Assembly: GCA_013361935.1 (NCBI GenBank)
Contig: JABFXC010000054.1
Location: 678-64,677 of the forward strand
DNA: 64,000 nt
Origin: Gemmatimonadaceae bacterium
GTDB lineage: Bacteria > Gemmatimonadota > Gemmatimonadetes > Gemmatimonadales > Gemmatimonadaceae
Reading direction: 5' to 3'
Shown: in pieces, positions 4,921 to 58,127 of the stretch
Layout of the letters: every line of letters starts with the position of its first letter
Position numbering within the stretch: the stretch's first letter is position 1
Program-made: the position numbers and the translations under genes
Notes under the pieces: model-generated
Seen by the model: only the letters and a program-made list of their open reading frames with translations
The model's database searches: none
What the model was told of the DNA's origin: nothing

Positions 4921-6323
4921 CGGGCGGATCCCTCGCGATAGGGCGGCAGCTCCATCCCCGGGCGCGACGCGGAGAAGCGCGTTCGCAGCCCGTCGGAGCC
5001 GAGCGTGTGCACGGTGCGGGTGACGTAGTAGAAGCCGTTGAAGGGCGGCCGATAGCCGCGGATCTCCACGTGCCGGCCCGGGCGCAGCCGCGGAAGCCCG
5101 ATCGCCGTCCCCTCGATGGTCAGGAGCTCGCGCGCCTTCTTCCGCAGCAGCGTCTGGGCGTACCAGGTGGCCCGCGTGTCGTCGAGGTTCGAGACGTTAG
5201 GCGGGCCGGCGCGATTCTCGCGCCCGGGAAGGAAGTGCGCGCGGACGAGCGGACCGGGAGTGAGGGTGCCGTCCACCGCCGGATCGACGTGGAGCTCGTC
5301 CTGCACGATCGCGCCGAGCGCGACGCCGCGGACTTCGCGCGGCGTGTGCGGATCGCGGTGCCGGCCGCGCACCTCGGCGGCGGTGAACTGGTCGACGACC
5401 TTCAGCGTCGGCGCGAACTCGAGCAGGCTCTGCTCGCGGTCGAGGCGGAAGATCACGTCCTGCCGCTCGATCGGGTTGGCGCGGCCGCGGTACGGCTCGA
5501 AGCGGAGCACCAGCGGCGCGTTGGTGCGGTCGAGGCTCGCGAACTCGAGGCAGACCTCGTAGTCGAGACGCTCGGCGAGCTTCTGGATGAACTCGAGGTA
5601 CGACTGTCCCTTCTGCACCGCGTCGTTCAGCCCCTGCGAGTCGTTCGTGGCGAAGGAGGGATGATCGACGAGCGGATCGGCGGGGGAGGAGATTGGATAG
5701 TGCGCGCGCTGGAGGACGCGGCGCACCATGCTCGTCTCGCTCAGCCGGTCGAGCTCGATGCGGCGCTCGGTGCGGTCCTTGAGCGTGTTGAGGTCGTCCT
5801 CGCCGGAGATCACGACCTGCGCGCCCTGGCCAGCGGCGAAGGTGAAGCGCATGTCGGTGATCGGGCCGGCGACCATCGGCACCCAGCGCTGCGGGTCGGC
5901 GGTGACGGGCGCGGCGGAGGCGGCGCGGTCGGGCCAGTAGCGGAAATCGACGCGCAGCCGGTCGCCAAAGCCGAGCACCGCGAAGTCGTCGTACTTGAAG
6001 CGCGGCCAGTACGGCGTGCGCCGCGGGTCGAGCCGCTCGCGGGCGTCGATGGGGCCGGCGCTGCCGCCCGTCGGATCATCGGAGGAGCGGTCCGCCGCGG
6101 TCGAGAGATACGCGTTGTTGAGGGTGAGCGAGTACGTGGCGAGCCCGCTGTTCGTGAGCGTCACCTCGGCGCGGACGACGTCGGCGTGGATGTCGGGCGG
6201 GAGGACGTCGCCGGCCTCGCCCTGGGGCTGGAGGGTGGCCGCGAGCTTGGCGAGGCGGACGCCGGGGGCGAAGTAGGCGCTCCCCGGACGCGGACCGTTA
6301 GGCGCTGGCGCGGTGACGGTCAT
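4917..6323 (-). CDS. Baseplate hub, phage late control D / gp27-like
   Basis: 468 aa. The C-terminus LLTIEGTAIGLPRLRPGRHVEIRGYRPPFNGFYYVTRTVHTLGSDGLRTRFSA resembles gpD-type hub proteins. Translationally coupled on both sides. Confidence 0.7.
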   Translation of the reverse strand: MTVTAPAPNGPRPGSAYFAPGVRLAKLAATLQPQGEAGDVLPPDIHADVVRAEVTLTNSGLATYSLTLNNAYLSTAADRSSDDPTGGSAGPIDARERLDPRRTPYWPRFKYDDFAVLGFGDRLRVDFRYWPDRAASAAPVTADPQRWVPMVAGPITDMRFTFAAGQGAQVVISGEDDLNTLKDRTERRIELDRLSETSMVRRVLQRAHYPISSPADPLVDHPSFATNDSQGLNDAVQKGQSYLEFIQKLAERLDYEVCLEFASLDRTNAPLVLRFEPYRGRANPIERQDVIFRLDREQSLLEFAPTLKVVDQFTAAEVRGRHRDPHTPREVRGVALGAIVQDELHVDPAVDGTLTPGPLVRAHFLPGRENRAGPPNVSNLDDTRATWYAQTLLRKKARELLTIEGTAIGLPRLRPGRHVEIRGYRPPFNGFYYVTRTVHTLGSDGLRTRFSASRPGMELPPYREGSAR

Positions 6324-6523
6324 ACGCGGCCCCGGCGCTGCAGCTCGCGCAGCTCGTCGTGGAGGACGTCGAGCACCAGCGAGCGAAGGCGCGCGCGCGA
6401 TCCCGGGTCGTTCTCGAGCAGGCGCAGCATCGCCTCGGCGCCGGCGGTGCCGGGCGCGCCGACGGGCGGCTCGTCGCCCGGGACGAGCTCCACTTCGCTG
6501 TGCACGCGATCGATCTGGAGCAT
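6320..6523 (-). CDS. Small conserved-position hypothetical protein of the eCIS operon (67 aa)
   Basis: MLQIDRVHSEVELVPGDEPPVGAPGTAGAEAMLRLLENDPGSRARLRSLVLDVLHDELRELQRRGRV. Fits exactly between the LysM and hub genes, with a 4-nt overlap downstream. No recognisable motif. Confidence 0.5.
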   Translation of the reverse strand: MLQIDRVHSEVELVPGDEPPVGAPGTAGAEAMLRLLENDPGSRARLRSLVLDVLHDELRELQRRGRV

Positions 6524-6533
6524 GGCGGCGTCC

Positions 6534-7178
6534 TCAGAGCGCGGGGATCCGCAGCGCGGTCCCCGGTGGCACGAACCGCGGGCGCTCGATGTCGTTCTCG
6601 CGGGCGATCGCCCGCCAGAGCCGCGGGTCGCCGTACGCCTCGCGCGCGAGCTGGGCGAGAGTCTCTCCCTCGCGCAGCACCCGCACGCGCGTGCGGTCGG
6701 GGCTGTGCAGCGCCATCCCGCGCAGCTGGACCTCCGGCGCCTGGTACGACTTGAACGTCGTCGTGACGCGCGCGCGGAGGACGGCCCCCGTCTCGCTGAA
6801 GAGCGTATAGCGCTCGCGCAGCTGCGTGACGACGCCGGTGAAGTGCACGTCGCCCCAGGTGAACAGACAGACCGGCGGCGCGTGCAGCTCGCTCTGCACC
6901 GTGACGAAGGTGCGCAGCGCGGCGAGCCGTCCCTCGACCGTCTTGTCGGGGGCCGCGCTCTGCCGCTTGTCCGTGCCGTCGAGGAAGAGCTCGAGCGTCA
7001 GCGTCTGCGCGTCGCCGCGCACGAACTGGAGCAGCGGCATCTGCAGCCCCGGCACCTGCAGCTCGGCGTAGGTGACGCCGCGGTCGACACCGTACTCCGT
7101 CGGGTTGAACTGCACCTCCACCGCCTCGGGCGCGGGGGAGACCGAGATGTTCTGGAGGGTGGCGAGGGCGAGGGTCAT
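6534..7178 (-). CDS. Tube-fold protein with C-terminal LysM domain (tube initiator-like, Afp7/Pvc7-like)
   Basis: 214 aa. N-terminal tube-like region FNPTEYGVDRGVTYAELQVPGLQMPLLQFVRG. C-terminal LysM-like VRVLREGETLAQLAREAYGDPRLWRAIARENDIERPRFVPPGTALRIP. Confidence 0.8.
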   Translation of the reverse strand: MTLALATLQNISVSPAPEAVEVQFNPTEYGVDRGVTYAELQVPGLQMPLLQFVRGDAQTLTLELFLDGTDKRQSAAPDKTVEGRLAALRTFVTVQSELHAPPVCLFTWGDVHFTGVVTQLRERYTLFSETGAVLRARVTTTFKSYQAPEVQLRGMALHSPDRTRVRVLREGETLAQLAREAYGDPRLWRAIARENDIERPRFVPPGTALRIPAL

Positions 7179-45882: not shown

Positions 45883-47388
45883 ATGACCAGCCCCCGCAGT
45901 CGTCGCTTCCCCCGCGCTCTCGCCGCAGCGGCGGCACTCGCCTTCGTGCTCGCCGGATGCGAGCGCTCGGCCACCGCGCCCGTCGCGCCCGCTCGCGCCT
46001 TCGCCGGCGCACCATCCTTCGCCACCGTCCCGGCACAGGGCACGGCCGGCACCCTCGACTTCGCGACCTGGAACATCGAGTGGTTCGGCGACGCGGCGAA
46101 CGGCCCCACGAACGAGGCGCTGCAGCAGTCCAACGTGCGTGACGTGATCGCCGGCGCTGACGCAGACATCTGGGGACTCGAGGAAGTCGTCTCGAAGAGC
46201 GCCTTCGATACGCTCGTGGCGCGCCTTCCCGGATATGCCGGCATCCTCGCGAACGACTCCAGCGTCGTGAACGGCCCGCAGTACTACAGTGACTTCAGCA
46301 ACACCGAGCAGAAGGTCGCGCTGGTCTGGAAGACCTCCGTCGCCACGCTGCGCGGCGCGAAGATCATCCTCACGGCGTCCGACTACGACTTCGCGGGCCG
46401 CCCCCCGATGGAGGTGCAGCTCACCACGACGCTGAACGGGGTGACGCAGGACCTCGTCGTGATCGTGCTCCACATGAAGTCCGGCGCGGACGCCACGAGC
46501 TGGCAGCGGCGCCAGAACGCGGGCAATGCGCTCAAGAGCTACCTCGACACGACGTACCCGACGCAGAAGGTGATCGTCCTCGGCGACTGGAACGACGACG
46601 TCGACACGTCGATCCTCGCCGGCAGCCCGACCCCCTACGCGAGCATCGTCGCGGACAGCGCGCGCTACCGCTATCCCCTCAAGGCGCTCTCCGACGCGGG
46701 GCAGACGTCGGAGGTGAACTACGCCGGCTCGCTCATCGACCAGCACCTCGTGACGAACGAGCTGCTCGCCGACTACGTCGCCGGCTCGGGAGAAGTGTTC
46801 CGCGCCGACCAGTACGTGACGAGCTACGGCACGACGACGAGCGACCACTATCCGACCATCACGCGCTACGGCGTCTCCGGCGGCGGCGGAAGCACGAACG
46901 CGGCGCCGACGGCGAGCTTCACGAGCGCCTGCACCGACCTGTCCTGCACCTTCACCGACGCGAGCACCGACAGCGACGGCTCGATCGCCGCGTGGAGCTG
47001 GAACTTCGGCGACGGCGCGACGTCGACCGCGCAGAGCCCGACCCACGACTACGCCGCCGCGGGGAGCTACACGGTGACCCTCACCGTCACCGACAACGCC
47101 GGCGCGACCGGCACGACGACGCGCAGCGTGAGCGTCACCGCGCCGGCGAGCGGGATCACTCTCTCGACCCGCGGCTACAAGGTGAGGGGGAGCGCCCGCG
47201 TCGACCTCACCTGGAGCGGGGCCACCGGCGCGACGGTGGACGTGTACCGCAACGGGACGAGAGTCGCGACGCCCTCGAACACGGGCGCGTACACAGACGT
47301 GCTGGGCAAGGTGAACGGCACGTTCACGTACAAGGTCTGCAACGCGGGCACCACCGTGTGCTCGCCGAATTCGAGCGCGACGTTCTGA
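45883..47388 (+). CDS. Secreted endonuclease/exonuclease/phosphatase-family lipoprotein with PKD-like and C-terminal beta-sandwich domains
   Basis: Lipobox LAFVLAGC. EEP motifs FATWNIEWFG, DIWGLEEV, VIVLHMKSG, GDWNDD and SDHYP. PKD-like FTDASTDSDGSIAAWSWNFGDGATS...HDYAAAGSYTVTLTVTDNAG. Confidence 0.85.
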   Translation: MTSPRSRRFPRALAAAAALAFVLAGCERSATAPVAPARAFAGAPSFATVPAQGTAGTLDFATWNIEWFGDAANGPTNEALQQSNVRDVIAGADADIWGLEEVVSKSAFDTLVARLPGYAGILANDSSVVNGPQYYSDFSNTEQKVALVWKTSVATLRGAKIILTASDYDFAGRPPMEVQLTTTLNGVTQDLVVIVLHMKSGADATSWQRRQNAGNALKSYLDTTYPTQKVIVLGDWNDDVDTSILAGSPTPYASIVADSARYRYPLKALSDAGQTSEVNYAGSLIDQHLVTNELLADYVAGSGEVFRADQYVTSYGTTTSDHYPTITRYGVSGGGGSTNAAPTASFTSACTDLSCTFTDASTDSDGSIAAWSWNFGDGATSTAQSPTHDYAAAGSYTVTLTVTDNAGATGTTTRSVSVTAPASGITLSTRGYKVRGSARVDLTWSGATGATVDVYRNGTRVATPSNTGAYTDVLGKVNGTFTYKVCNAGTTVCSPNSSATF

Positions 47389-47470
47389 GCTGGTGACTTG
47401 CGGCTGTCCGGGGGTGGGGCGAGCTTCGTCGCTTCGAGAGGCCCTGCCCCGCCCCCGCACCGCCGCCCAC

Positions 47471-48763
47471 ATGCAGACCCGTGCCTGCCTGACGCTCCTC
47501 GCCGCGCTCGCGCCGGCGCTTCCGCTCCTCGCGCAGAGCAGCTCCCCGTCATACGCGCGCGTCGATTCGGCTGTGGTCGACGAGCTGCGGCGAACGAGCA
47601 CACCCGGCGCCGCCGTAGCGCTCGTCGTCGGCGACAGCGTCGTCTACGCGAAGGGGTTCGGGAGCACGGCCGCGGATGGCGCGGCGGTGACGCCGGCGAC
47701 GACCTTCCGCATCGCGTCGATCACGAAGGTCTTCACCGCCGCGACGCTCGTCTCGCTCGCCGAGGCGGGGCGCGTCGATCTCGCGGCGCCGATCGGCGCG
47801 CGGCTGGGCGAGCTCCCCGACTCGCTCCGCCGCATCACCGCGCACCAGCTCCTCAGCCATACCGCGGGCCTCATCATGATGCCGGCGCCGGCCACCGGAG
47901 CCGATCCCGCGACCGCGCTCGCCGACGCGGCGGCGCGGGTGCCGGCGCGCGCGGCCTTCACCGCGCCCGGCGAGATCTTCTCCTACTCCAACCTCGGCTA
48001 CCAGCTCGCCGGCCGGCTGATCGAGGTGGCGGGCGAGCGGCCATACGCCGAGCAGGTGCGGCGGACGCTGCTGATGCCGTTAGGCCTCACGGCGACGAGC
48101 TTCGATTCCACGGTGGGACTGGGGGCGCTCCCCTTCGCCGGGCTGTCCTCGAACGTGCTCGACCTGTCGCGCTTCGCGATCGCCTTCATGAACGCGGGAC
48201 GCCCGGACGGATCGCGCGCGCTCACGTCGCCGATGGTCGCCCGCCTCACGGCGCCCGCCGCGCGCTTCCAGAGCGGCCCCGGCGACTACGGCTACGGGCT
48301 GCGGCTGTACCGGCATCGCGGGGTGGACGTGGTGGAGCACGGCGGCGTAGATCCCGCGGGCTATCGCAGCCTGCTGTACATGGTGCCCTCGCGGCGGGTC
48401 GCGGTGATCGTGCTCGCGAACCGCGCCGGGCGTCGGCCGTACGCGATCGCGGACGCGGCGCTCGATGCGCTGATTCCCGGTGCGGTGACGCCGGTCGTCG
48501 CTCCGGCGGCGGTGGTGCCGATGGACTCGGCGGAGATGACGCGCTACACCGGGCGGTACGCGGGCGGGCTGGTCGTGGAGGTCAGCGTCGACAATGGAGT
48601 GCTGACGCTGCACCAGGGCGCGCAGGCGCTGTCGATCCGGAAGCTGGCGAGTGGGGAGCTGGTGGCGGGGGGAGAGGAAGGTCAGTTCATCGCCTTCGTG
48701 CCGGGGAGCGACGGCGCGGTGAAGTACCTGCACTTCAACATGCGGGCGTTCCGGCGGATGTGA
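47471..48763 (+). CDS. Serine hydrolase, beta-lactamase class C / PBP4*-like family
   Basis: Signal peptide MQTRACLTLLAALAPALPLLAQ. SxxK motif FRIASITKVFTA. YSN motif (FSYSNLGY). Confidence 0.85.
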   Translation: MQTRACLTLLAALAPALPLLAQSSSPSYARVDSAVVDELRRTSTPGAAVALVVGDSVVYAKGFGSTAADGAAVTPATTFRIASITKVFTAATLVSLAEAGRVDLAAPIGARLGELPDSLRRITAHQLLSHTAGLIMMPAPATGADPATALADAAARVPARAAFTAPGEIFSYSNLGYQLAGRLIEVAGERPYAEQVRRTLLMPLGLTATSFDSTVGLGALPFAGLSSNVLDLSRFAIAFMNAGRPDGSRALTSPMVARLTAPAARFQSGPGDYGYGLRLYRHRGVDVVEHGGVDPAGYRSLLYMVPSRRVAVIVLANRAGRRPYAIADAALDALIPGAVTPVVAPAAVVPMDSAEMTRYTGRYAGGLVVEVSVDNGVLTLHQGAQALSIRKLASGELVAGGEEGQFIAFVPGSDGAVKYLHFNMRAFRRM

Positions 48764-48812: not shown

Positions 48813-49742
48813 CTAGAAGAAGCGCCGGACCAGCTGGACGTTCACGCTCGTCGCGATCACCGGCCGGCACGCCCCCTTCGTCGGGCAGAACGCGGCGAGG
48901 TCGATCGTGCGCAGGTGCACCACCGCGCCCCACAGGTCGGCGTGCGTCAGCATGTCGTGCTGGTACGCGGCGGCCACCCCGAGGTGGTTCACCAGCCGCG
49001 CGACGGTGTTGTTCGCGAAGAAGTAGTAGCTCATCCCGAGCTGCGTCACCGGCGACGACGGCCGGAATCCCCCGACGCTCGGCTCGTACTGGTAGCCGAT
49101 CACCTGCTCGCGCGCGATGAATTCCCAGTGGGTGGGCATCGCGACGACGCTGTTGATCGTCGGGTTCGTGAAGGCGTCCTCGGTGAGCACCATCTCGAGC
49201 AGGTTGAGCCGCTCGCTCGCGTCGCCGTACTTGATGAAGAAGCGGCGGTAGTACTCGTCGAGCTGGAGGGCGAGCCGGTCGAGGAGGCGCTGCGTGATGC
49301 GGTTCGCGGGGCCCGCGAGCGGCGCGGGGACCGTCCCGTTCCGGTAGATGTCACGCCTCACGCTCTCGAAGAGCGCGCGCAATCCTTCGAGGATCGGCCG
49401 AGCGATGTCGGTCGACGCGCGACGGTCGCCGACGACGCGCAGCAGCTCGCGCAGCTCCTTCTGCGTGTTGCGCACGCCCGTCTGGCCGGCGGGATCGCTC
49501 GCGAGGCCACCCCACCCACCGGGCTGCTCCGTGATCCGCGTCAGCTCGGCGTCGTACTCGCCGAACCACTTCCGGATGTCCTCGAAGTCGTCGAAGGTGA
49601 GCGCGAAGTCGTCCTGCGGCGGGCGCGCCGCCGCGGCGACGACGGGCGTCGGTGTCCCCGGCAGCCGGACCGCCGGCGCCTGCGCGCGCAGCGCGGCCGG
49701 GATGAGCGCCGTGGCGAAGAGTGTCGCTCTCAGAAGAGCCAT
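48813..49742 (-). CDS. Secreted hypothetical protein, possible OM beta-barrel C-terminal half (third gene of hydrolase operon)
   Basis: 309 codons from MALLRATLFATALIPAALRAQA (signal peptide). Helical N-terminal half, then strand-like alternation ending VNVQLVRRFF (terminal aromatic). 13-nt overlap with the upstream gene. Confidence 0.6.
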   Translation of the reverse strand: MALLRATLFATALIPAALRAQAPAVRLPGTPTPVVAAAARPPQDDFALTFDDFEDIRKWFGEYDAELTRITEQPGGWGGLASDPAGQTGVRNTQKELRELLRVVGDRRASTDIARPILEGLRALFESVRRDIYRNGTVPAPLAGPANRITQRLLDRLALQLDEYYRRFFIKYGDASERLNLLEMVLTEDAFTNPTINSVVAMPTHWEFIAREQVIGYQYEPSVGGFRPSSPVTQLGMSYYFFANNTVARLVNHLGVAAAYQHDMLTHADLWGAVVHLRTIDLAAFCPTKGACRPVIATSVNVQLVRRFF

Positions 49743-50581
49743 GACGCGATCACCTCCCGGTTGTGAGCGATGTACGACTCGATCATCGAGTGTCCTTCCC
49801 AGAAGCGCTTGAGCGGCGTGTCCGTCGAGAAGAGGCGGAATTCGTCCACGAGGTCGTTGTCGGGGGTGCGCGCGTAGAAGGCGGCGTCGTTGATGTGGAT
49901 GAAGGGGTCCTTGCGGTTGTAGAGCGCGCCGCAGCGGCGGATCATGCTGTACCAGCGCCCGCTCGCCGTGCGCTTGTATGGCTTCCGGCACGCGTTCTCG
50001 GTGAGGTAGCGGTCGGCGCCGAGCGCGTGCAGCACGTGGTAGATCGGCGCGAGCATCGGCGCACACGTGACGAGATTGACGTCGACGACCTGCACGAGCG
50101 CCGCGGTGTCGAAGGCCCGGTAGATCCCCTCGTAGCCGATGTAGGTGCCGAGGCTGTGCGAGAGCACACCGATCCGCGCGTCGTGGATGTCCCCGGTCGG
50201 ACCGACGAGCTCCAGCGCGCGCTTGAGTGCACGCGCATACGTCTGGACGAAGCGGAGCTGCGCCGCATCGAGCGCGCCGCGGAGGAGCACGTTCTCGACG
50301 ACGTCGTACGCGTAATCCTCGAGCGAGTCCTTCACCTGCTCGGGCGTCGCGCTCGGGAGGAGATGGCTGAGCGTCTCGAACTTCTGCCGGATCGCCTCGT
50401 TCGAGTCCTCGTAGATCACCTCGAAGAGATGGATCTCGCGCGCGCCGGTGTACATGACCTTCCGATCGCCCGTGGTGACGAGGGAGCCGCCGGGAAAGAG
50501 TGCCTGCGCCCAGGCGTCGGTGTCCCCCGACTCCGGGTCGCCCATCCCCACGATCATGATCAGGATCTCTGGTATCGGCAT
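49730..50581 (-). CDS. Alpha/beta-hydrolase-like (lipase-like) protein, divergent
   Basis: 283 aa. N-terminal strand ILIMIVGMGD and nucleophile-elbow-like IGVLSHSLGTYIG. No signal peptide. Confidence 0.6.
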   Translation of the reverse strand: MPIPEILIMIVGMGDPESGDTDAWAQALFPGGSLVTTGDRKVMYTGAREIHLFEVIYEDSNEAIRQKFETLSHLLPSATPEQVKDSLEDYAYDVVENVLLRGALDAAQLRFVQTYARALKRALELVGPTGDIHDARIGVLSHSLGTYIGYEGIYRAFDTAALVQVVDVNLVTCAPMLAPIYHVLHALGADRYLTENACRKPYKRTASGRWYSMIRRCGALYNRKDPFIHINDAAFYARTPDNDLVDEFRLFSTDTPLKRFWEGHSMIESYIAHNREVIASWLF

Positions 50582-50612
50582 CGCTCGCTCGCGTGTGAGG
50601 GTGTGGCGGACG

Positions 50613-53114
50613 TCACCCGATCAGGGTGTCGATCTCGGTCGCGACGTCCTTGCTGGTCCAGTAGCGCGTATGCGTCCCCGCGCCGAGGCATCGCTCGGTG
50701 CGGCGATCGCCCGCCCGGCAGAAGCCGGTCGACCAGACGTCGTCCCAGTCCTCCGGCTGCCAGAGCGTGCGGCCGACGTAGTCTCCGGTGGTGTAGAGGT
50801 TCACCCACTTGCTGACCGCGAGGGCGCGGGGATCGGGAGTGCGATCCTCGAAGTCGACCGGCTTCGCGTCATCGTCGCTCGCGTCCACCCAGCGATAGAG
50901 ATGGGGAAAGTTCTTCGCGTAGAGCTGGCGGAGGGGCGATCCCATCGTGAGCAGCCTGACGTCCATCCCATCGAGCGGGACGCTCGGATCCTGCGTCGCG
51001 ACGAGAAAGCGAAGGAAGTCGGCGCTGATCACCGTCCCCTGCGAGTGCGCGACGATGACGATGCGGTCGAAGTATGGGCGTTCCTGCTCCGTCGCGGTGG
51101 CCGGCGCCTTCCGCGCGACGATGTAGCGCAGGAGCGACGCGTAGCGCTCGGCCATCCGCGCTCGCGGCGTGCCGTCGACGGGCGACTCGCGCAAGTAGTT
51201 GTCCACGTCGAGGAGGATGCCGAGGGCGGGACGGGCGCGATTCGCCAGCGTCTTCACGCGCAGCCAGAGCGCGGCGATCGTTGCCGCCGACGCGCCGAAG
51301 ACGATCGCGATGCGCGTGAGGATCGGCGTCATCCCGTTCGGATCGAGGAGCCTGCGCAGCCATGGCCACGACGGCAGCGCGCCGACGTCGCGCAGCGTGT
51401 CGGCCAGTAGGCCGATGAGGATGAAGGCGAGGACCGCCGTGACGAGCACTAGGCCCGCGGCGCGGAGGAGCGCGAAGCCGTCGGTCATCCAGTCGCCGAG
51501 GCGCGACCAGCGCGGAGAGTCCGCGGGCGGCGTCCAGATGCTCGTCGAGATCACGATGACGACGAGCCACGACGCGAGGATCCCGGCGAGGAGCACGATC
51601 ACCAGCGCCAGCCGCAGCCCGGAGGTCCCGCTCTGGGCGATGAGCTTCTCGAGGAAGCGGTGCGTCTGCTCCCCCGGCTGTCCCGGCGGGTCGACCTCGT
51701 CGCGCGGCAGGTCGGGGGCGAGGAAGCGGCTGACGATCGGCAGCGGCGCGCTGGCCGTCGCGTGCGGGAAGATGTCGAGTCGCTCGTGATATCGCGTCGC
51801 GACGTTCAACAGCGACTCGTAGAGCACGAGCGCCGTCATGATGAAGAAGAAGACCGTGACCGCGATGGTGACGCGCGCGGTCCACGAGGCGCGCCCGGCG
51901 CGCGCCTTCTCCGGTTGCGTGCGAGCCGCGCGGTAGACGAGCAGCCGCAGCCCCGACGCGACGAACATCGCCAGCCAGAGCGCGATCCAGCTCAGCATGA
52001 GCGCGACGTAGCTCCACTGGAAGCCGACGAAGCCGACGTTGCGCAGCCGCTCGACGAGAGTCGGCGCGGCGACGAGGGAGCGGCTCGCCCAGACCGGGAC
52101 GATGACGGCGAGGACGATTCCCCATCCCCAGCCGAGCGCGCCGGGGCGCGTCGAGTGGTAGCGGGCGAGGAACCAGGCGAAGGTCGCGATCGCCAGGACG
52201 ACGGCGAGCACCGCGATCGCGACGGACCCGATCCCCTCCGTCCTCGCCTTCGGCGCGTACACGATGGCACCCACCGCTCCGCCGACGGCGAGCAACGCGA
52301 CCGTGATGACGACTCGGGCGGCGTGCCTCATCCGCGCCGCGAAGCCCGCGACCATCATCGCGATGACGACCAATCCGATCGCGGCGATCGCGACCGCGAT
52401 CGGGAATCGCAGCGAGGGACGGAGCGCGGCGGGGACGAAGAGGAAGAGCCAGTCGAGCATCAGCACCGTCGCGACCGGCACCGCGATGGTGAAGAGCCGC
52501 ACCGCCATCGCGTGTACCCGCCGGTACCTCCCCGCGGCCCGCGCGTGGCGGGAACCCTGGTCGTCGGCGCGCGCCTCCTCGAAGGCGATGTCGAGCGTCT
52601 TCCGGCCGAGGTGACAGACGTGCTGGAGGAGCTGGTAGAGCGCGCCGAGCATCCGGAGGAACCCCGCGCCGACGCGCGAGAGGTCGGCCCAGTGCATCTC
52701 GTAGATGTGGACCGTGGTCTCCGTGATCTCCCTGGTCTCCTTCTCTTTGCGCCGGCGCGTACCCGTGAGCTCGATCGTCGCGTACGGCTGCCGGTCGCTC
52801 CGGTATCCCGCGAGCTGCCGTCGCATGAACTGCACGTCGGGGCGGAACGGCTTCAGCTCCGTGTCCAGCTCGACGCGGTCCTCGAAGCGGAAGGCGTTGC
52901 GGATGCGCGCCCAGAACGAGGGGCGGGTCCCGTCCCGCGCGGGACCGGCGCCGACCGGGTCGGTGGGGAGGATGACGTGCTGCTCGCTGAACGCGCGGTA
53001 GTCGGACGCGTTAGGCGCGCAGCGGACGAGCAGCTCGGCGATGCTCCGCGCGGTGGCGTCCTGCGGCGGACTGCCGACGCCATGGACGGCGATAACGGCG
53101 ACGTGCTCGGGCAT
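50613..53114 (-). CDS. Alpha/beta-hydrolase (lipase-like) split by a ~450-aa polytopic membrane insertion
   Basis: 833 aa. N-terminal VAVIAVHGVGSPP (strand plus HG oxyanion-type motif). About 11 predicted TM helices between roughly residues 200 and 620. C-terminal IVIVAHSQGTVISADFL (G/A-x-S-x-G elbow) and LLTMGSPLRQLY. Confidence 0.7.
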   Translation of the reverse strand: MPEHVAVIAVHGVGSPPQDATARSIAELLVRCAPNASDYRAFSEQHVILPTDPVGAGPARDGTRPSFWARIRNAFRFEDRVELDTELKPFRPDVQFMRRQLAGYRSDRQPYATIELTGTRRRKEKETREITETTVHIYEMHWADLSRVGAGFLRMLGALYQLLQHVCHLGRKTLDIAFEEARADDQGSRHARAAGRYRRVHAMAVRLFTIAVPVATVLMLDWLFLFVPAALRPSLRFPIAVAIAAIGLVVIAMMVAGFAARMRHAARVVITVALLAVGGAVGAIVYAPKARTEGIGSVAIAVLAVVLAIATFAWFLARYHSTRPGALGWGWGIVLAVIVPVWASRSLVAAPTLVERLRNVGFVGFQWSYVALMLSWIALWLAMFVASGLRLLVYRAARTQPEKARAGRASWTARVTIAVTVFFFIMTALVLYESLLNVATRYHERLDIFPHATASAPLPIVSRFLAPDLPRDEVDPPGQPGEQTHRFLEKLIAQSGTSGLRLALVIVLLAGILASWLVVIVISTSIWTPPADSPRWSRLGDWMTDGFALLRAAGLVLVTAVLAFILIGLLADTLRDVGALPSWPWLRRLLDPNGMTPILTRIAIVFGASAATIAALWLRVKTLANRARPALGILLDVDNYLRESPVDGTPRARMAERYASLLRYIVARKAPATATEQERPYFDRIVIVAHSQGTVISADFLRFLVATQDPSVPLDGMDVRLLTMGSPLRQLYAKNFPHLYRWVDASDDDAKPVDFEDRTPDPRALAVSKWVNLYTTGDYVGRTLWQPEDWDDVWSTGFCRAGDRRTERCLGAGTHTRYWTSKDVATEIDTLIG

Positions 53115-53299: not shown

Positions 53300-54475
53300 T
53301 TACAGCGGTTCCGTCCCCTCCTCGAGGATGCGCAGGTACGCGGAATACCCGAAGAGACGGTTTCGCCGCCGTCCCGTGAGCTCGCGCGCAATCTTCATGT
53401 CGCGCAGTGTCATCAGCGACTTCGTAATCGCGGGAACCGACATCCCCGTTGCGGCAGCGACTTGGCCGATCGATGCCACTGGACGCGCGCGCAACGCGCC
53501 GTGCACTCGCAGAACGGTGCTGGCGGCGCGGCCGAGTTCCTGGATGCGATCCTGATCGCGCTTGAACAGTTTGACGAGCCGCTGGGCTGTGTTGACCGCG
53601 CCGCTCGCCGTCTCGGTCACTCCGTCCGCGAAGAACCCGACCCACCCTTCCCACTCGCCCTTCGTCCGAATTCGATCGAGCCAGCCGTAGTACGCGTCGC
53701 GATTTTTCTTCAGGTAGAGACTGAGATAGAGCAGGGGTTCGCTCAGCACTCCCTCGACGCAAAGAAGCAGTGTCACCATGAGTCGCCCGAGGCGCCCATT
53801 CCCGTCGAGGAAGGGGTGGATCGTCTCGAACTGCACGTGCGCGAGAGCCGCTTTGAGAAGTGGGGAAGTACGCTCCGGTTGATCGTGCAGCCACTTCTCC
53901 AGCGCGCCCATGCAGTCGGGGAGATGTTGCGGCGGTGGCGGGACGAACGATGCGTTTCCTGGGCGGCTTCCCCCGATCCAGTTCTGCGACGTGCGGAAGT
54001 CGCCCGGCTGCTTCGCTCGCCCCCGCCCTCTGGACAGCAGCACTCCGTGGATCTCGCGGAAGAGCCGATTGGAAAGTGGGAAGCCCTCGCGAATTCGCTT
54101 CAGCCCGTGATCGAGTGCCGCGACGTAGTTCGAAACCTCGACCACGTCGTCCATCGGCACCCCCGGCGCATCGCTGGCTTCGAAGAGCAGAAGATCCGAA
54201 AGGGACGACTGAGTGCCCTCGATCTGGGAGGAAAGTACCGCTTCCTTCCTGACGTATGTATAGAGGAAGAGGTGGGTATCCGGCAGCAGCGTCGTCACGC
54301 TATCCAGGCGACCGACCGCGAGCAATGCAGCATCGAGTTTGTCGCGCAGCGCCGCGTCGATCTGAAGCGGTGGCTCCGGCGGCAGGGGTGCCGGAATGAA
54401 GGCCTTGACGCGTTCGCCCCCGACTACCGAAGTGGTCTCGTACCGGCCGGTTGGGCCGCGGGTTGTCTGCCGCAT
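53300..54475 (-). CDS. Fic-family protein (class II, intramolecular inhibitory helix) with C-terminal wHTH-like tail
   Basis: HPFLDGNGRLGR is the Fic motif HxFx(D/E)GNGRxxR. The N-terminal VLSSQIEGTQ contains (S/T)xxxE(G/N). C-terminal IGQVAAATGMSVPAITKSLMTLRDMKIARE looks like an HTH. Confidence 0.9.
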   Translation of the reverse strand: MRQTTRGPTGRYETTSVVGGERVKAFIPAPLPPEPPLQIDAALRDKLDAALLAVGRLDSVTTLLPDTHLFLYTYVRKEAVLSSQIEGTQSSLSDLLLFEASDAPGVPMDDVVEVSNYVAALDHGLKRIREGFPLSNRLFREIHGVLLSRGRGRAKQPGDFRTSQNWIGGSRPGNASFVPPPPQHLPDCMGALEKWLHDQPERTSPLLKAALAHVQFETIHPFLDGNGRLGRLMVTLLLCVEGVLSEPLLYLSLYLKKNRDAYYGWLDRIRTKGEWEGWVGFFADGVTETASGAVNTAQRLVKLFKRDQDRIQELGRAASTVLRVHGALRARPVASIGQVAAATGMSVPAITKSLMTLRDMKIARELTGRRRNRLFGYSAYLRILEEGTEPL

Positions 54476-54517
54476 TCGGATAGGCCGCTATTAAACACTG
54501 GTGAATAGGCGATACCG

Positions 54518-54549
54518 TTATTAAACAAATATGGCGTTTTGTTTAATAA
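54518..54549. promoter_or_regulatory. Perfect 12-bp AT-rich inverted repeat immediately upstream of the Fic gene (candidate operator)
   Basis: TTATTAAACAAA-tatggcgt-TTTGTTTAATAA. An additional half-site CTATTAAACA lies at about 54489-54498. This is the most AT-rich stretch in the window. Confidence 0.5.
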
Positions 54550-54572
54550 GCGCAACCACGTCCTGAGATAGC

Positions 54573-57500
54573 TCAGGCCACCGCCGCAGCGAATGCCTGG
54601 AACAGATCCCCCGGCAATGGATGCCGTAGCCGCCACGTCACCGCCATCGGTAGCTCACCGACGTGCTTCACATACGTCGCCGGCCCGAGAAAGTAGAAGG
54701 CGCGATCATCGGCATTGAGTCGCGCGAAGAGAAGGATCTGGTGCCCCATCGCGACGTGATTCTGGTACCGGCGCCCCATCGGACTCCCGGCGCGCGTAGT
54801 CGACTGGCTCTCCCAGTGAATGAGCTCCCGGCTGATCGCATAGTCCCGATAGCGCGTCGTCGGCGAGAACTGGCCGCTCGTCTTGTCGAGGGTGAAGACG
54901 AAGAGATCCGCCTTCAGCGCCTTGTCGAAATACAGTCCCTCACGCCAAGGCCGCACCTTCACCTTGTCGTCCGCGCCGCAGGCAGCGAGCATCTCGAGGC
55001 GCGCGTACCGGGCGTGCACGTTCAGCGGGACTTCAGGCAGCACATCGAGCGCGAGCGCCACGTGCGGGATGCGCTCGGCGAGAACGTCGAACAGCTCGAT
55101 CAACTCGACCCGGATCGCGGCGTGCTTCCAGACCAGCCGCGCACCTTCTTCCAACGTCGTGTCCGACTCCGCGATCCGGTCGAGCAGTTGTACCACGAGC
55201 ATCCTGAGCAGCCGGCGCTCGCGCAGCGGCAGGGAGGCGACCGCTGGCGGCTCGTCGCCGCGCAGCCACTGCCGCCAGGTATCGAGTCGCTCCCGGTCGT
55301 CCACATGGAGAAGACGGCCGCACGCACGCCGCAGCGTCTCTTCTTCGTCTCCCGAGACCACCGGGCCGAGCCCCGCTGCCGCTCGCAGGTCGGCCCATGA
55401 GTACTTCCCGGTGTAGACGTCCTCGAGATCGAGCCCCGACCCCCGCAGAAACTGACCGAGCGTGATCCCCGGCTGCTCGGTGGCGAGTGCCTTCAGCTCC
55501 GCCGCCTTCTCGCTCCAGCGGTTAGGCACCGAGTATCTGATGTTCTCGAGCACCCGCTCGGTCGCCTTCCGATCGAGCTCCATGTGGCAGCCCGCCGGAA
55601 GGAAGGGGAATCCTTCGGCGACCTGCCGAGTCACGGATGCTCGACTCCCGCCGAGCAACGCCTGGAAGCGCCGATCGTAGCGGAACTCCTTCCGATGCTC
55701 ACCGACGAAATCGAGGACGGTGCACAACGTCTTGTCCGGAGCCTTTCGCAGCCCGCGGCCGAGCTGCTGGAGGAAGAGCACCGCGCTGTCGGTCGGCCGG
55801 AGCATCAACAGCGCATCCACGGCCGGAACGTCGACGCCTTCGTTGAAGAGATCGACCGAGAAGAGGACGTTGATCTCACCCTTTGCGAGCCGGGCAAGTG
55901 CCTGGCGTCGCTCGTCGTCGGGCGTGTCCGCCCATACCGCGACCGCGCGCACCCCCTGCTCGCTGAACACCCGCGCCATGTACCGCGCGTGAGCGACGCT
56001 GACACAGAAGCCGAGAGTGCGAAAGCGATCGATGCGGCCGACGTGCTTCGCGAACTGCTGAAGGACGCTGCGCGCCCATGCGTCGTTCGCGGTTATGAGA
56101 TTCGTCAGCCCTTCGACGTCGTAGCCGGTGCCTCGCTTCCAGGGGATTTCGCGCAGGTCGAGATTGTCGGCGACTCCGTAGTACGCGAAGGGAGTGAGCC
56201 GATGCTGATCGATCGCGTCCCAGAGCCGCAGCTCGGCGGCGATGCGGTCGTCGAACCAGTGGAGGATCGGCAGCCCATCGCTGCGCTCCGGTGTCGCGGT
56301 GAGCCCGAGAAGCTCGACCGGCGCGAGCTTCGACAACAACCGCTCGTACGACGCCGCCGCCGCGTGATGGAACTCGTCGATGATGACGACGTCGAAGTGC
56401 TGCGGACTCAGGTCGGCGAGGCCACTCGCGCTCAGAGACTGGATCGAGGCGAAGACGTGCTCGAAGTCGCGTGGCCGTTTGCCGCCGACCCAGAGCTCCC
56501 CGAAGTTTGCGTCACGCTGCGCATGCGCGAAGGTGCGGCGGCTCTGCTCGAGGATCTCCTCGCGGTGGGCGACGAAGAGAAGCCGGGCGCGCTTGAGCGT
56601 ACGACGAAGCCGCGCATAATCGACCGCAGCCATGACTGTCTTGCCGGTCCCAGTCGCGGAGACAAGCAGGTTGCGGTGACGCCCCTGCTGACGGGCGAGC
56701 TCGATCTCCTCGAGAAGCCGCTCCTGAAACGGCTCGAGGCGGATCTCGATCGGACTCAGTGTGAGACCTGCCTCCGCCTTTTCATTCGTGCCGATTGCTT
56801 CGACGAACCGTTCGCGGTCGTACGGGGCGAAGTCAGGCTGCTGCCAATAGCTGTCGAAGACGGCTGCAATCTTCTCGATGACGGGCCGATTGCGGGCGCT
56901 CGACACGCGCACGTTCCACTCGAGCCCAGTCACCTGCGCCGAGTGCGTGAGGTTCGAGGAGCCGACGTAGGCAGTCGAGTAGCCGGAATCGCGATGGAAG
57001 AGCCACGCCTTCGCGTGCAGCCGCGTACCGCCCGTCTCGTACGACACGCGCACCTCGGCGCCGAGCTCGGCGAGGAGGTCGAGCGCCTCGGCTTCGGTCG
57101 AACCCGTGTAGGTCGTGGTGAGCACGCGGATCGGACGGCCAGCGTCGACATGTCGCTGGAGCGCTTCGCGCATCGGGTTGATCCCGGTGCGTCGGATGAA
57201 GGCCATGACGATGTCGATCCGGTCCGCGGAGGCGATCTCCGCCTGGATCTGGTGTCCGACGCGTGGCTCTCCGGGCGCGTTGGTGAGGAGCGTCGTGTCG
57301 AGGAGCGGGATCAGCGGCGCTTCGAGCTCGTCGACGCTGCCATCCGGCTTTCGTCCGCGGATCGCGCGGAGGATCCGGGCCGGATCGACGGGACGCTCGG
57401 CGCCGAGTGCCTCGGTCTTCGGCTCCTGCGCGATCTGATCGACGAGGCGGCGCGCGATGGCGGTGCCAAGGTTGGCTCGCTCCTCGAGAGGGAACGTCTC

Positions 57501-57668
57501 GACAGCACGTTCGACGACGGAGGCGATGTGAAGGGCGATGCGGTCTGCTGCCTCCGCATTGCGCAGATCGGCGATGGCCGGATCGCCCGGGAGGCCGGGC
57601 TGAGCTAGTTGCTCGGCGAGCGATTCTGTGAGCAGAAGCTCGTAAAGGCCGCGGGGGCGGGGAGGCAT
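54573..57668 (-). CDS. HKD (PLD-like) nuclease - SF2 helicase - DUF3427 fusion protein
   Basis: 1031 aa. HKD motif RLHAKAWLFHRDSGYSTAYVGSSNLT. Walker A SATGTGKT, DEFHH box, TATPER, and motif VI QQLGRGLR. The C-terminal DLFVFTLDKTSGQFSPTTRYRDYAISRELIHWESQSTT...ILLFAR matches my memory of DUF3427. Confidence 0.85.
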   Translation of the reverse strand: MPPRPRGLYELLLTESLAEQLAQPGLPGDPAIADLRNAEAADRIALHIASVVERAVETFPLEERANLGTAIARRLVDQIAQEPKTEALGAERPVDPARILRAIRGRKPDGSVDELEAPLIPLLDTTLLTNAPGEPRVGHQIQAEIASADRIDIVMAFIRRTGINPMREALQRHVDAGRPIRVLTTTYTGSTEAEALDLLAELGAEVRVSYETGGTRLHAKAWLFHRDSGYSTAYVGSSNLTHSAQVTGLEWNVRVSSARNRPVIEKIAAVFDSYWQQPDFAPYDRERFVEAIGTNEKAEAGLTLSPIEIRLEPFQERLLEEIELARQQGRHRNLLVSATGTGKTVMAAVDYARLRRTLKRARLLFVAHREEILEQSRRTFAHAQRDANFGELWVGGKRPRDFEHVFASIQSLSASGLADLSPQHFDVVIIDEFHHAAAASYERLLSKLAPVELLGLTATPERSDGLPILHWFDDRIAAELRLWDAIDQHRLTPFAYYGVADNLDLREIPWKRGTGYDVEGLTNLITANDAWARSVLQQFAKHVGRIDRFRTLGFCVSVAHARYMARVFSEQGVRAVAVWADTPDDERRQALARLAKGEINVLFSVDLFNEGVDVPAVDALLMLRPTDSAVLFLQQLGRGLRKAPDKTLCTVLDFVGEHRKEFRYDRRFQALLGGSRASVTRQVAEGFPFLPAGCHMELDRKATERVLENIRYSVPNRWSEKAAELKALATEQPGITLGQFLRGSGLDLEDVYTGKYSWADLRAAAGLGPVVSGDEEETLRRACGRLLHVDDRERLDTWRQWLRGDEPPAVASLPLRERRLLRMLVVQLLDRIAESDTTLEEGARLVWKHAAIRVELIELFDVLAERIPHVALALDVLPEVPLNVHARYARLEMLAACGADDKVKVRPWREGLYFDKALKADLFVFTLDKTSGQFSPTTRYRDYAISRELIHWESQSTTRAGSPMGRRYQNHVAMGHQILLFARLNADDRAFYFLGPATYVKHVGELPMAVTWRLRHPLPGDLFQAFAAAVA

Positions 57669-57719
57669 CCCGCCGAAGATACGCCTAACGGGCTGCTTGG
57701 CCAGGCTGGCTGCTTCGGG

Positions 57720-58127
57720 TCAGCCCCGGATGGGCTGGCGTGAGGCGCGTTGTGCGAGCGCGAACTCGACGAATTGGCGGTCGGTGGGGGCGAGGGGGAG
57801 CGATTGGATCTCGTGGAGGGTTGCCCAGCGGAGCTCGGAGTGCTCGACGCAGGTGGGGTCGCCGCGGATCTCGGTTGGGACGAACTCGATGACGAATGGG
57901 GAGCCGGGGTCGGCAAACGACACTAACGGTTCGCCGACTTTGACGGCGGCTACGCCGAGTTCTTCCTGGAGTTCGCGGTTGGCGGCGTCGAGAAGGGATT
58001 CGTCAGGCTCGAGTTTGCCACCGGGGAATTCCCAGAGGTTTCCGTGGCGTTTGTGGGGTGGGCGTTTGCAGATGAGGTAGCGGTCGGCGCGCTTGATGAC
58101 GGCGGCGAGAACTTGGATTGCGGACAT
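57720..58127 (-). CDS. NUDIX hydrolase, MutT/NudG-like
   Basis: 135 aa. Nudix box GGKLEPDESLLDAANRELQEELGV, preceded by WEFPGG. Confidence 0.85.
   Translation of the reverse strand: MSAIQVLAAVIKRADRYLICKRPPHKRHGNLWEFPGGKLEPDESLLDAANRELQEELGVAAVKVGEPLVSFADPGSPFVIEFVPTEIRGDPTCVEHSELRWATLHEIQSLPLAPTDRQFVEFALAQRASRQPIRG

Follow-up and report, generated by a model that had tools for sequence, protein, structure and literature searches.

A bacterial inner-membrane protein family with a proposed split lipase-like domain, and a separate coupled gene pair beside one of its members in a Gemmatimonadaceae bacterium

Alpha/beta-hydrolases are among the best-studied enzyme folds, and the elaborations known for them are lids, caps, and terminal anchors. 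To our knowledge, membrane-bound hydrolases are built with terminal anchors or as end-to-end fusions, and in the membrane-anchored enzymes PGAP1, ABHD6/12, and PlaF the membrane helices flank the catalytic domain and do not interrupt it. Here, a three-gene locus from a Gemmatimonadaceae bacterium was analyzed within a stretch of 64,000 nucleotides (nt), hereafter the window (contig JABFXC010000054.1 of assembly GCA_013361935.1, positions 678 to 64,677 of the forward strand). The product of gene 1 carries alpha/beta-hydrolase-type motifs at both ends of the chain, with a polytopic membrane domain between them; gene 2 encodes a hydrolase-like protein that is predicted to be cytoplasmic, and gene 3 a protein that is predicted to be exported. 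An initial reading of the window from its letters and open reading frames (the original prediction) had described the three genes as an uncharacterized operon. The interpretation favored here, at a probability of roughly 0.55, is that gene 1 is a standalone membrane-split serine hydrolase, and that genes 2 and 3 form a separate accessory pair with varying partners.

With the alpha/beta-hydrolases of Pfam clan CL0028 (DUF676/PGAP1/Lipase_2), gene 1 shares an HG motif after the first strand, an AHSQG elbow, a G-x-P motif, and the order Ser-Asp-His; however, it attains no family threshold, and its core is interrupted by a 10-helix membrane domain of ~430 residues. Tle3 (PF24322) is the most frequent weak match across the gene 1 family, always at the nucleophile elbow, but the best score is 18.2 bits against a gathering threshold of 27, with ~30 residues aligned. 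Moreover, Tle3 is an effector that is secreted and has its site of action in the periplasm, whereas gene 1 is predicted to be integral to the inner membrane, with its active site facing the cytoplasm. A polytopic domain covalently joined to a serine hydrolase-type domain is also found in the AT3-SGNH proteins OatA and OafA and in the RND-GDSL protein QsdH (PMC3466314), but these are end-to-end fusions of complete domains with SGNH or GDSL folds and a usually periplasmic hydrolase, in contrast to the nested and predicted cytoplasmic arrangement of gene 1. By analogy with these three proteins, the membrane part of gene 1 would present a membrane-borne substrate.

The proposed interrupted hydrolase domain of gene 1

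The motifs that the original prediction had named in gene 1 are all present, namely VAVIAVHGVG at residues 5-14, VIVAHSQGTVI at residues 686-696 (with Ser691), and TMGSP at residues 723-727. An AlphaFold2 model was computed from a 28-sequence alignment (mean predicted local confidence, pLDDT, 82.6; predicted template-modeling score, pTM, 0.83). In this model, a strand at residues 3-10 runs into HG and is followed by a helix at 20-31 (helix A) and by strands at 37-49, 111-123, and 130-140. Ten long helices occupy residues 189-641, after which come a helix at 650-667 (helix B) and the elbow itself, made up of strand 684-690, Ser691, and helix 692-707 (helix C). Strand 718-724 then leads into GSP, strand 769-774 into Asp778, and strand 805-809 into His815, and the chain closes with a helix at 822-832. 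The alpha/beta-hydrolase labels on this model (helices A, B, and C, and the HG strand) are our own assignments. Based on the order of secondary-structure elements, the membrane domain is placed between the early strands and helix B.

Among five defining features of alpha/beta-hydrolases that were tested, three are present in gene 1. The nucleophile elbow, VAHSQGT, sits at the turn between strand 684-690 and helix 692-707 and is at least 95% conserved; the nucleophile, acid, and histidine occur in the order S691, D778, and H815, each after a strand and each at least 95% conserved; and H11-G12 stands directly behind the first core strand, at residues 3-10. For the fourth feature, a single sheet, the secondary-structure order and the pTM of 0.83 are consistent with it, while the best hydrolases in Foldseek reach an E-value of only ~0.14. 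The fifth, a significant match to a curated alpha/beta-hydrolase family, was not found, as all Pfam matches fall below the gathering score and NCBIfam returned none. Overall, the claim of an alpha/beta-hydrolase-type apparatus (HG; Ser691, Asp778, His815) interrupted by a polytopic membrane domain holds. The N-terminal (1-185) and C-terminal (620-833) pieces probably fold into one domain, and gene 1 is likely to be enzymatically active as a serine hydrolase.

Similarity to known hydrolases was traced below the curated thresholds. When the insert was removed in silico, weak Tle3 matches appeared in 15 of 17 family members and DUF676 matches in 7 of 17, together with DUF900, Abhydrolase_6, Lipase_2, and PE-PPE, all of which are alpha/beta-hydrolase families; every one of these matches was sub-threshold. 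Full-length homologues gave a weak Tle3 match at the nucleophile elbow in seven of eight cases, and the sub-threshold alpha/beta-hydrolase matches of gene 1 center on the C-terminal piece. The best family scores were 14.5 bits for DUF676 (cut-off, 20.3) and 20.3 bits for Abhydrolase_6 (cut-off, 26.3). Searches of the PDB by sequence and by profile, with genes 1, 2, and 3 and their alignments, yielded nothing significant. With gene 1, the sequence search gave only chance matches to membrane helices, and the profile search was headed by a 252-amino-acid (aa) "putative lipase" (7x2p; E 0.32), in which the HG strand and the elbow/TMGxP region align with gene 1 in the same order. In a Foldseek comparison of the full model with the PDB, no match was significant, and HSL-type esterases reached a TM-score of 0.27 at the E-value given above; kinesin motors, which appeared as top matches, were dismissed as spurious (root-mean-square deviation of 15-20 Å). 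The weak Foldseek result is attributed to the sequential aligner, which cannot bridge a 430-residue insert.

Between the two hydrolase pieces, the original prediction had counted ~11 hydrophobic helices. The hydrophobic stretch stands, but the count is revised to 10 spanning helices plus one short non-spanning helix at residues 482-495. Since the number of spanning helices is even, both soluble pieces would lie on the same side of the membrane. Net loop charge alternates perfectly across the family (69 sequences), with 15.4 Lys and Arg residues in the cytoplasmic-side loops as against 6.6 in the periplasmic-side loops, at equal total loop length. Because of these loop charges, and because no signal peptide precedes the 200-residue N-terminal domain, the catalytic domain is assigned to the cytoplasm, and both soluble parts of gene 1 are predicted to lie there. 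A long loop between helices 7 and 8 (residues 434-499) is predicted to be periplasmic, and 25% of family members carry at least two Cys residues in it. In and near the membrane domain, only W376, T412, F487, G540, and W542 are at least 95% conserved (69 sequences).

In the mechanism proposed for gene 1, the first ~185 and last ~215 residues would make up a cytoplasmic catalytic domain, with the 10-helix bundle inserted between them, and Ser691, Asp778, and His815 would form the triad, with H11-G12 as the oxyanion hole. The membrane bundle may serve as an oversized lid or substrate-access domain, handing a membrane-embedded acyl ester, most likely a phospholipid or another anionic lipid, to the cytoplasmic active site. 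Six invariant arginines (R147, R628, R657, R702, R729, and R782) were also observed near the gene 1 motifs, and these would fit an anionic substrate such as phospholipid.

Distribution and neighborhoods of the gene 1 family

Gene 1 is a member of a widespread, unnamed, and unannotated family of bacterial inner-membrane proteins with a putatively split lipase-like domain. A protein search retrieved 34 homologues at 29-44% identity, none with a Pfam domain; all were hypothetical or lacked a protein name, and the few that were assigned to an organism came from Gemmatimonadaceae. A scan of one genome per species extended this set to 80 gene-1 loci in Gemmatimonadota, Cyanobacteria (Microcoleus, Allocoleopsis, Waterburya, Leptolyngbyaceae, and Coleofasciculus), Burkholderiales, Gammaproteobacteria, and Methylomirabilota/Rokubacteria. 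Cultured Burkholderiales with a member of the family include Variovorax boronicumulans, V. gossypii, and Variovorax sp. Root473. A further member, of 751 aa and with the same layout, is encoded on a megaplasmid of Cupriavidus pinatubonensis under the RefSeq name "hypothetical protein."

The split layout is conserved throughout. From the loci, 68 full-length relatives of 780-944 aa were extracted, covering at least five phyla, and all 68 have HG (within residues 10-60) and HSQG (within residues 640-765), with 7-11 peaks of crude hydropathy, mostly 8-10, between the two motifs. By simple pattern search, GDY[VI] and G[AT]HT each occur in 66 of the 68. In a 69-sequence alignment, the positions conserved at 95% or above comprise H11, G12, E139, W142, and D144 on the N-terminal side, the last three being invariant and lying within EMHWADLSR, and R628, D636, D638, N639, H690-S691-Q692-G693, G725, P727, D778, Y779, C809, and H815 in the C-terminal part; H11-G12 is also invariant in the 28-sequence alignment. 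Searches of Pfam, NCBIfam, PADLOC, and PHROGs with gene 1 returned nothing significant, and literature searches on the architecture, on the structure of Tle3, and on PDB 7x2p turned up no account of the family or of a hydrolase core in which a polytopic domain is nested. The suggestion that this split architecture is foreign to characterized families is therefore upheld, as it is conserved in 68 homologues and matched by no curated family.

No conserved neighbor accompanies gene 1. In a tblastn search of the 80 gene-1 loci, which span up to 8 kb per side, neither gene 2 nor gene 3 was found at any of them. Clustering of all flanking open reading frames at 85 loci recovered, as shared neighbors, only Variovorax synteny or ubiquitous families (AMP-binding enzymes, ABC ATPases, and response regulators). 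The nearest same-strand neighbors at ten diverse gene-1 loci, as identified with Pfam, are mutually unrelated: PNPOx, lactonase, GT2, DUF4329, aldo-keto reductases, RtcB, a xanthine dehydrogenase subunit, a hybrid kinase, and a Ser/Thr kinase. Within Variovorax, synteny around gene 1 is stable across 8-11 species. Judging from these neighborhoods, gene 1 appears to act alone, with no fixed partner, and the combination of within-genus synteny and metabolic or regulatory neighbors suggests a physiological rather than a defense role for the family. Relatives of genes 1, 2, and 3 were not found in viral contigs; in plasmids, none were found for genes 2 and 3, and the Cupriavidus megaplasmid supplied one for gene 1.

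Two observations concern patatin-like proteins near gene 1 relatives. In a Gemmatimonadaceae lineage, a 921-aa protein (L003:5212-7977; also at L004, L005, and L011) with a sub-threshold Patatin match (E 5e-5) stops 24 nt short of the gene 1 homologue, and on the Cupriavidus plasmid an annotated patatin-like phospholipase (L094:2722-3456) lies ~1.8 kb from the family member. These neighbors may reflect a lipid-related theme, or they may be coincidence.

The gene 2-gene 3 pair

At the locus itself, the three genes lie where the original prediction had placed them, on the minus strand with products of 833, 283, and 309 aa (Table 1). Independent gene calls on 24 or more metagenome contigs of the same population gave identical lengths for all three and the same 13-nt overlap of genes 2 and 3, with a gene order of restriction enzyme, Fic, gene 1, gene 2, gene 3, and a convergent beta-lactamase-like gene. 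All three are considered real genes because their products have conserved homologues. The operon claim is borne out in part: the genes run in the same direction with tight junctions (a 31-nt gap from gene 1 to gene 2, then the 13-nt overlap), and in a sequence scan neither a sigma-70-like promoter nor a terminator-like site turned up between them, but they are not conserved as a unit. When conservation of the triad was checked, genes 2 and 3 were missing from the flanks of all 80 gene-1 loci, and the pair recurred without gene 1, next to other partners.

Gene 2 begins directly with its first strand and has no signal peptide. It has 14 close relatives at 61-74% identity, among which G12, E54, Y57, H142-S143-L144-G145, D225-P226-F227, and H264-S265-M266 are invariant; in this clade xGMG replaces HG, while distant relatives keep HG (LFVHGIG in L092 and FAHGMG in L097). 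A metagenome scan for gene 2 found two short loci only. Pfam gives sub-threshold matches of gene 2 and its relatives to Abhydrolase_6, DUF676, and Lipase_3, and one distant relative weakly matches Tle3 and DUF676. Together with the SHSLG elbow and the candidate triad, these matches agree with the earlier view of gene 2 as hydrolase-like. The description of gene 2 as paralogue-like fared less well, as profile-profile comparison with gene 1 finds similarity in ~44-83 columns around the elbow (E 2e-4 to 1e-3, probability 17-45%). Since the hhalign alignment never extends beyond the elbow region, paralogy of the two genes was rejected as an established relationship. The AlphaFold2 model of gene 2 is poor (pLDDT 56.4), so that its Foldseek matches are meaningless and were discarded; its better-scored first half follows the strand-helix order of gene 1 minus the insert.

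Gene 3 is by prediction an exported protein of two domains, in line with the earlier claim of a signal peptide and a strand-rich C-terminal half; its N-terminal half is helical, the C-terminal half contains C286 and C292, and the chain ends in RRFF. Six close relatives were found, and when 1.84 billion representative proteins were scanned exhaustively with an HMM, only 29 clusters matched, with no relative found in Pfam or the PDB. An alignment of 28 sequences, with identities as low as ~15%, shows a hydrophobic segment resembling a signal peptide at the start of all full-length members. The last residue is F or L, or a short tail follows directly on F, in 20 of the 28, and G173, N180, E183, R211, G236, Y240, H253, G255, A257, and G272 are invariant, with H276 nearly so. 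One distant relative (P0074, at L091:2-1939) directly follows a radical-SAM/SPASM-type gene and not a gene 2 relative.

Genes 2 and 3 lie side by side in the window and at L001, L006, L007, L088, L089, L090, L092/L093, L095, L096, and L097, that is, in about 11 distinct contig settings, and wherever the junction is readable they overlap by 1-13 nt. They are a tight, translationally coupled, and rare pair that is separate from gene 1. The upstream side is informative in eight settings, where a gene-1-like protein stands before the pair in two, a membrane protein with a TIG domain in three, and no co-oriented partner in three (Table 1). A SIR2-like gene is also present in two of the three settings with the membrane/TIG protein, supported by a PADLOC SIR2 match (E 4e-5) for the L095 protein only and by a faint Pfam SIR2_2 match for the L097 protein. 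Apart from the weak SIR2 match, no PADLOC model matched the clusters at L095, L096, and L097, which comprise three or four overlapping genes. Homology of the membrane/TIG partner to the membrane domain of gene 1 was considered and set aside, as the comparison detected none. Among the other products of the genome with the L092 pair is a protein that bears a Por secretion tail.

The combination of a SIR2-like gene, the membrane/TIG protein, and relatives of genes 2 and 3 is a candidate novel system. With the SIR2 defense systems (Thoeris ThsA, DSR, and SIR2-HerA), the pair shares the overlap with a SIR2-like gene in L095 and L097, varying partners, and adjacent restriction genes (in the window and in L097); however, genes 2 and 3 have no PADLOC match, the SIR2 scores are weak, a TIR, HerA, or STAND partner is lacking, and the contigs are few and short. 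The pair is most plausibly an accessory module, and on these few short contigs possibly one related to conflict or defense; it would move between genomic contexts and recruit different partners, with gene 1 as the membrane partner in the present lineage.

Table 1. Coordinates of features in the window and at other loci that carry relatives of the gene 2-gene 3 pair
Feature	Coordinates	Strand	Evidence or description
Gene 1	50613..53114	minus	833-aa open reading frame; homologues, family-wide motifs, AlphaFold2 model; predicted polytopic inner-membrane serine hydrolase
Gene 1 residues 1-185, N-terminal hydrolase piece	52560..53114	minus	first strand, HG, strand hairpin, EMHWADLSR; invariant columns, AlphaFold2 order
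Gene 1 H11-G12	53079-53084	minus	HG motif; codons checked
Gene 1 residues 205-618, inserted membrane domain	51261..52502	minus	10 spanning helices; hydropathy, AlphaFold2 helices
Gene 1 residues 620-833, C-terminal hydrolase piece	50616..51257	minus	LDVDNYLRESP, AHSQG, TMGSP, GDY, GTHT
Gene 1 Ser691	51042-51044	minus	nucleophile elbow AHSQG
Gene 1 Asp778	50781-50783	minus	GDY
Gene 1 His815	50670-50672	minus	GTHT
Gene 2	49730..50581	minus	283-aa open reading frame; predicted cytoplasmic alpha/beta-hydrolase-like protein
Gene 2 Ser143	50153-50155	minus	candidate triad, SHSLG
Gene 2 Asp225	49907-49909	minus	candidate triad
Gene 2 His264	49790-49792	minus	candidate triad
Gene 3	48813..49742	minus	309 aa counted from MALLRATLF; predicted exported protein
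Gene 3 signal peptide	about 49680-49742	minus	hydrophobic N-terminus
Fic/SoFic (outside the unit)	53300..54475	minus	PADLOC SoFic E 1e-115; Pfam Fic_N and Fic
PLD-helicase-DUF3427 type IV methyl-directed restriction enzyme (outside the unit)	54573..57668	minus	PADLOC mREase_IV E 2e-245; Pfam
Pair in the window			gene 1 upstream
Pair at L001 and on the P0044 contig			preceded by a divergent gene-1-like protein (C-terminal identity, 32%)
Pair at L006 and L007			divergent, unrelated genes upstream
Pair at L092 (also L093)	5174-7029		pair alone, between alaS and recX-recA
Pair at L096	208-3055		membrane protein (3-4 helices) with C-terminal TIG domain, then pair
Pair at L095	2-3600		membrane/TIG protein, pair, then SIR2-like gene overlapping the end of gene 3
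Pair at L097	2038-6113		SIR2-like gene, membrane/TIG protein, pair, all overlapping; Mrr restriction gene nearby

Genomic surroundings and alternative readings

The Fic and helicase-nuclease genes that the original prediction had noted beside the locus are a SoFic gene and a PLD-helicase-DUF3427 type IV restriction enzyme. Together with a NUDIX gene they make up a foreign-looking, defense-type island of ~5 kb (53300-58127). The Fic and restriction enzyme genes are confirmed as neighbors of genes 1-3, directly upstream, but a link between the two groups is not borne out by GC content at third codon positions (GC3), which is 0.765 for Fic, 0.825 for the restriction enzyme, and 0.779 for NUDIX, as against 0.934, 0.919, and 0.952 for genes 1, 2, and 3, a host background of about 0.92, and 0.90-0.94 for five other window genes. 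Because of this host-like GC3, genes 1-3 look native and merely border the foreign island. In PADLOC-DB v2, no family matched genes 1, 2, or 3 at E <= 1; only their neighbors matched. On the other side of gene 3 lie a secreted Exo_endo_phos nuclease/phosphatase with PKD domains (45883-47388) and, 4 nt on, a gene (47393-48763) that is convergent with gene 3 and encodes a 456-aa protein of the beta-lactamase family, equipped with a signal peptide. The window neighbors that were scanned were UPF0182, Exo_endo_phos-PKD, the beta-lactamase-like gene, Fic, the restriction enzyme, NUDIX, and an M1 peptidase. On the two strands of the window together, 28 copies of the octamer GCCTAACG were counted, compared with ~1 expected from shuffles (largest count, 5), a density of about one per 2.3 kb (e.g., at 1844, 14917, 14940, 45601, 53009, and 57683); the word appears to be over-represented throughout the genome and may be a signal of the uptake, Chi, or repeat type. 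Its reported scarcity in the operon is not significant (one copy, at 53009, for 1.95 expected; P(<=1) = 0.42).

Several points weigh against the interpretation of a standalone gene 1 hydrolase with a separate accessory pair. No hydrolase-family match of gene 1 attains a curated threshold, Foldseek found no significant match in the PDB for the full model, and a lipid as its substrate is a conjecture drawn from the membrane setting and from weak similarity to lipase families. As for a conflict or defense role of the pair, which draws on three or four short contigs, the codon composition of genes 1-3 is host-like, unlike that of the Fic/restriction island, and the placement of the L092 pair among housekeeping genes argues against a purely mobile or defense role. 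In addition, a second lineage, divergent from this one, has a gene-1-like protein ahead of the pair, and a functional link between gene 1 and the pair may exist.

Such a link is central to the view that genes 1-3 form one envelope-spanning lipid-remodeling machine, in which the inner-membrane step, extraction or deacylation of a lipid, would fall to gene 1 and the processing of that lipid in the cytoplasm to gene 2, while gene 3 would act in the periplasm or outer membrane. The tight, co-directional junctions (31-nt gap, 13-nt overlap) with no terminator-like site between them, the order fixed in 24 or more population contigs, the gene-1-like protein before the pair in a second lineage, and the membrane protein immediately before it in three further lineages are all as such a machine would have it, but this view is rather unlikely given that genes 2 and 3 are found at none of the 80 gene-1 loci, that the pair has no co-oriented upstream partner in L006, L007, and L092, and that the membrane/TIG partner is unrelated to gene 1. 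It is also doubtful that the locus serves in anti-phage defense, with gene 3 or the membrane partner sensing perturbation of the envelope and gene 1, gene 2, or the SIR2-like protein damaging the membrane or depleting NAD. The genes are compositionally native beside a foreign island and have no PADLOC match, viral-contig relatives are absent for all three and plasmid relatives for genes 2 and 3, Variovorax species share the synteny around gene 1, whose neighbors elsewhere are metabolic or regulatory, and the L092 pair sits among housekeeping genes; on the other hand, SoFic and a type IV restriction enzyme adjoin the genes in the window, the L097 pair belongs to a four-gene overlapping cluster with a SIR2-like gene near an Mrr restriction gene, the end of gene 3 in L095 runs into a SIR2-like gene, and the variable partners resemble the effector swapping seen in defense systems. 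A more far-reaching proposal, held here as speculative and on balance improbable, is that gene 1 founds a new enzyme class, with a 10-helix membrane domain nested in an alpha/beta-hydrolase core and gating the passage of a bilayer lipid to a cytoplasmic active site, and that the pair is the conserved core of an envelope-spanning conflict or defense system not recognized before, in which a hydrolase of the gene 1 type, a membrane/TIG protein, and a SIR2-like NADase would be interchangeable as membrane or effector partner.

Read without gene 1, a signal-less lipase-like gene 2 that is translationally coupled to an exported gene 3 has the arrangement of an interbacterial lipase toxin and its periplasmic immunity protein, as in the Tle/Tli pairs of type VI secretion systems, and a distant gene 2 relative gives weak Tle3 and DUF676 matches. 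This is nevertheless a very unlikely explanation: no VgrG, PAAR, Hcp, Rhs, adaptor, or Tli3 gene occurs among the neighboring genes that were scanned, all Tle3 scores are far below threshold, Tle effectors are far larger proteins than gene 2 (283 aa), and the polar residues of gene 3 that stay invariant across ~15% identity are more typical of an enzyme or receptor than of a fast-evolving immunity protein. Least probable of all is that gene 1 is inactive and serves as a transporter, sensor, or scaffold whose hydrolase-like domain has degenerated, or that its N-terminal piece is an unrelated domain. Its membrane domain is large and confidently modeled, and it has no significant match to a hydrolase family or structure; however, pseudo-enzymes usually lose catalytic residues, and here the three triad residues and the HG motif each show conservation of 95% or more in sequences from five phyla, while the membrane domain, with its five conserved positions W376, T412, F487, G540, and W542, bears no polar catalytic or transport signature.

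The interpretation of gene 1 as a standalone membrane-split hydrolase beside a separate accessory pair has consequences for both parts of the locus. The occurrence of the pair with SIR2-like and membrane partners is a pattern from which new defense or envelope-signaling systems have been recognized before. The gene 1 family occurs in cultured, tractable Variovorax, so its chemistry and physiology are directly testable. If the proposed architecture is true, a polytopic domain nested in a catalytic core would be a new way to couple a soluble catalytic fold to the bilayer.

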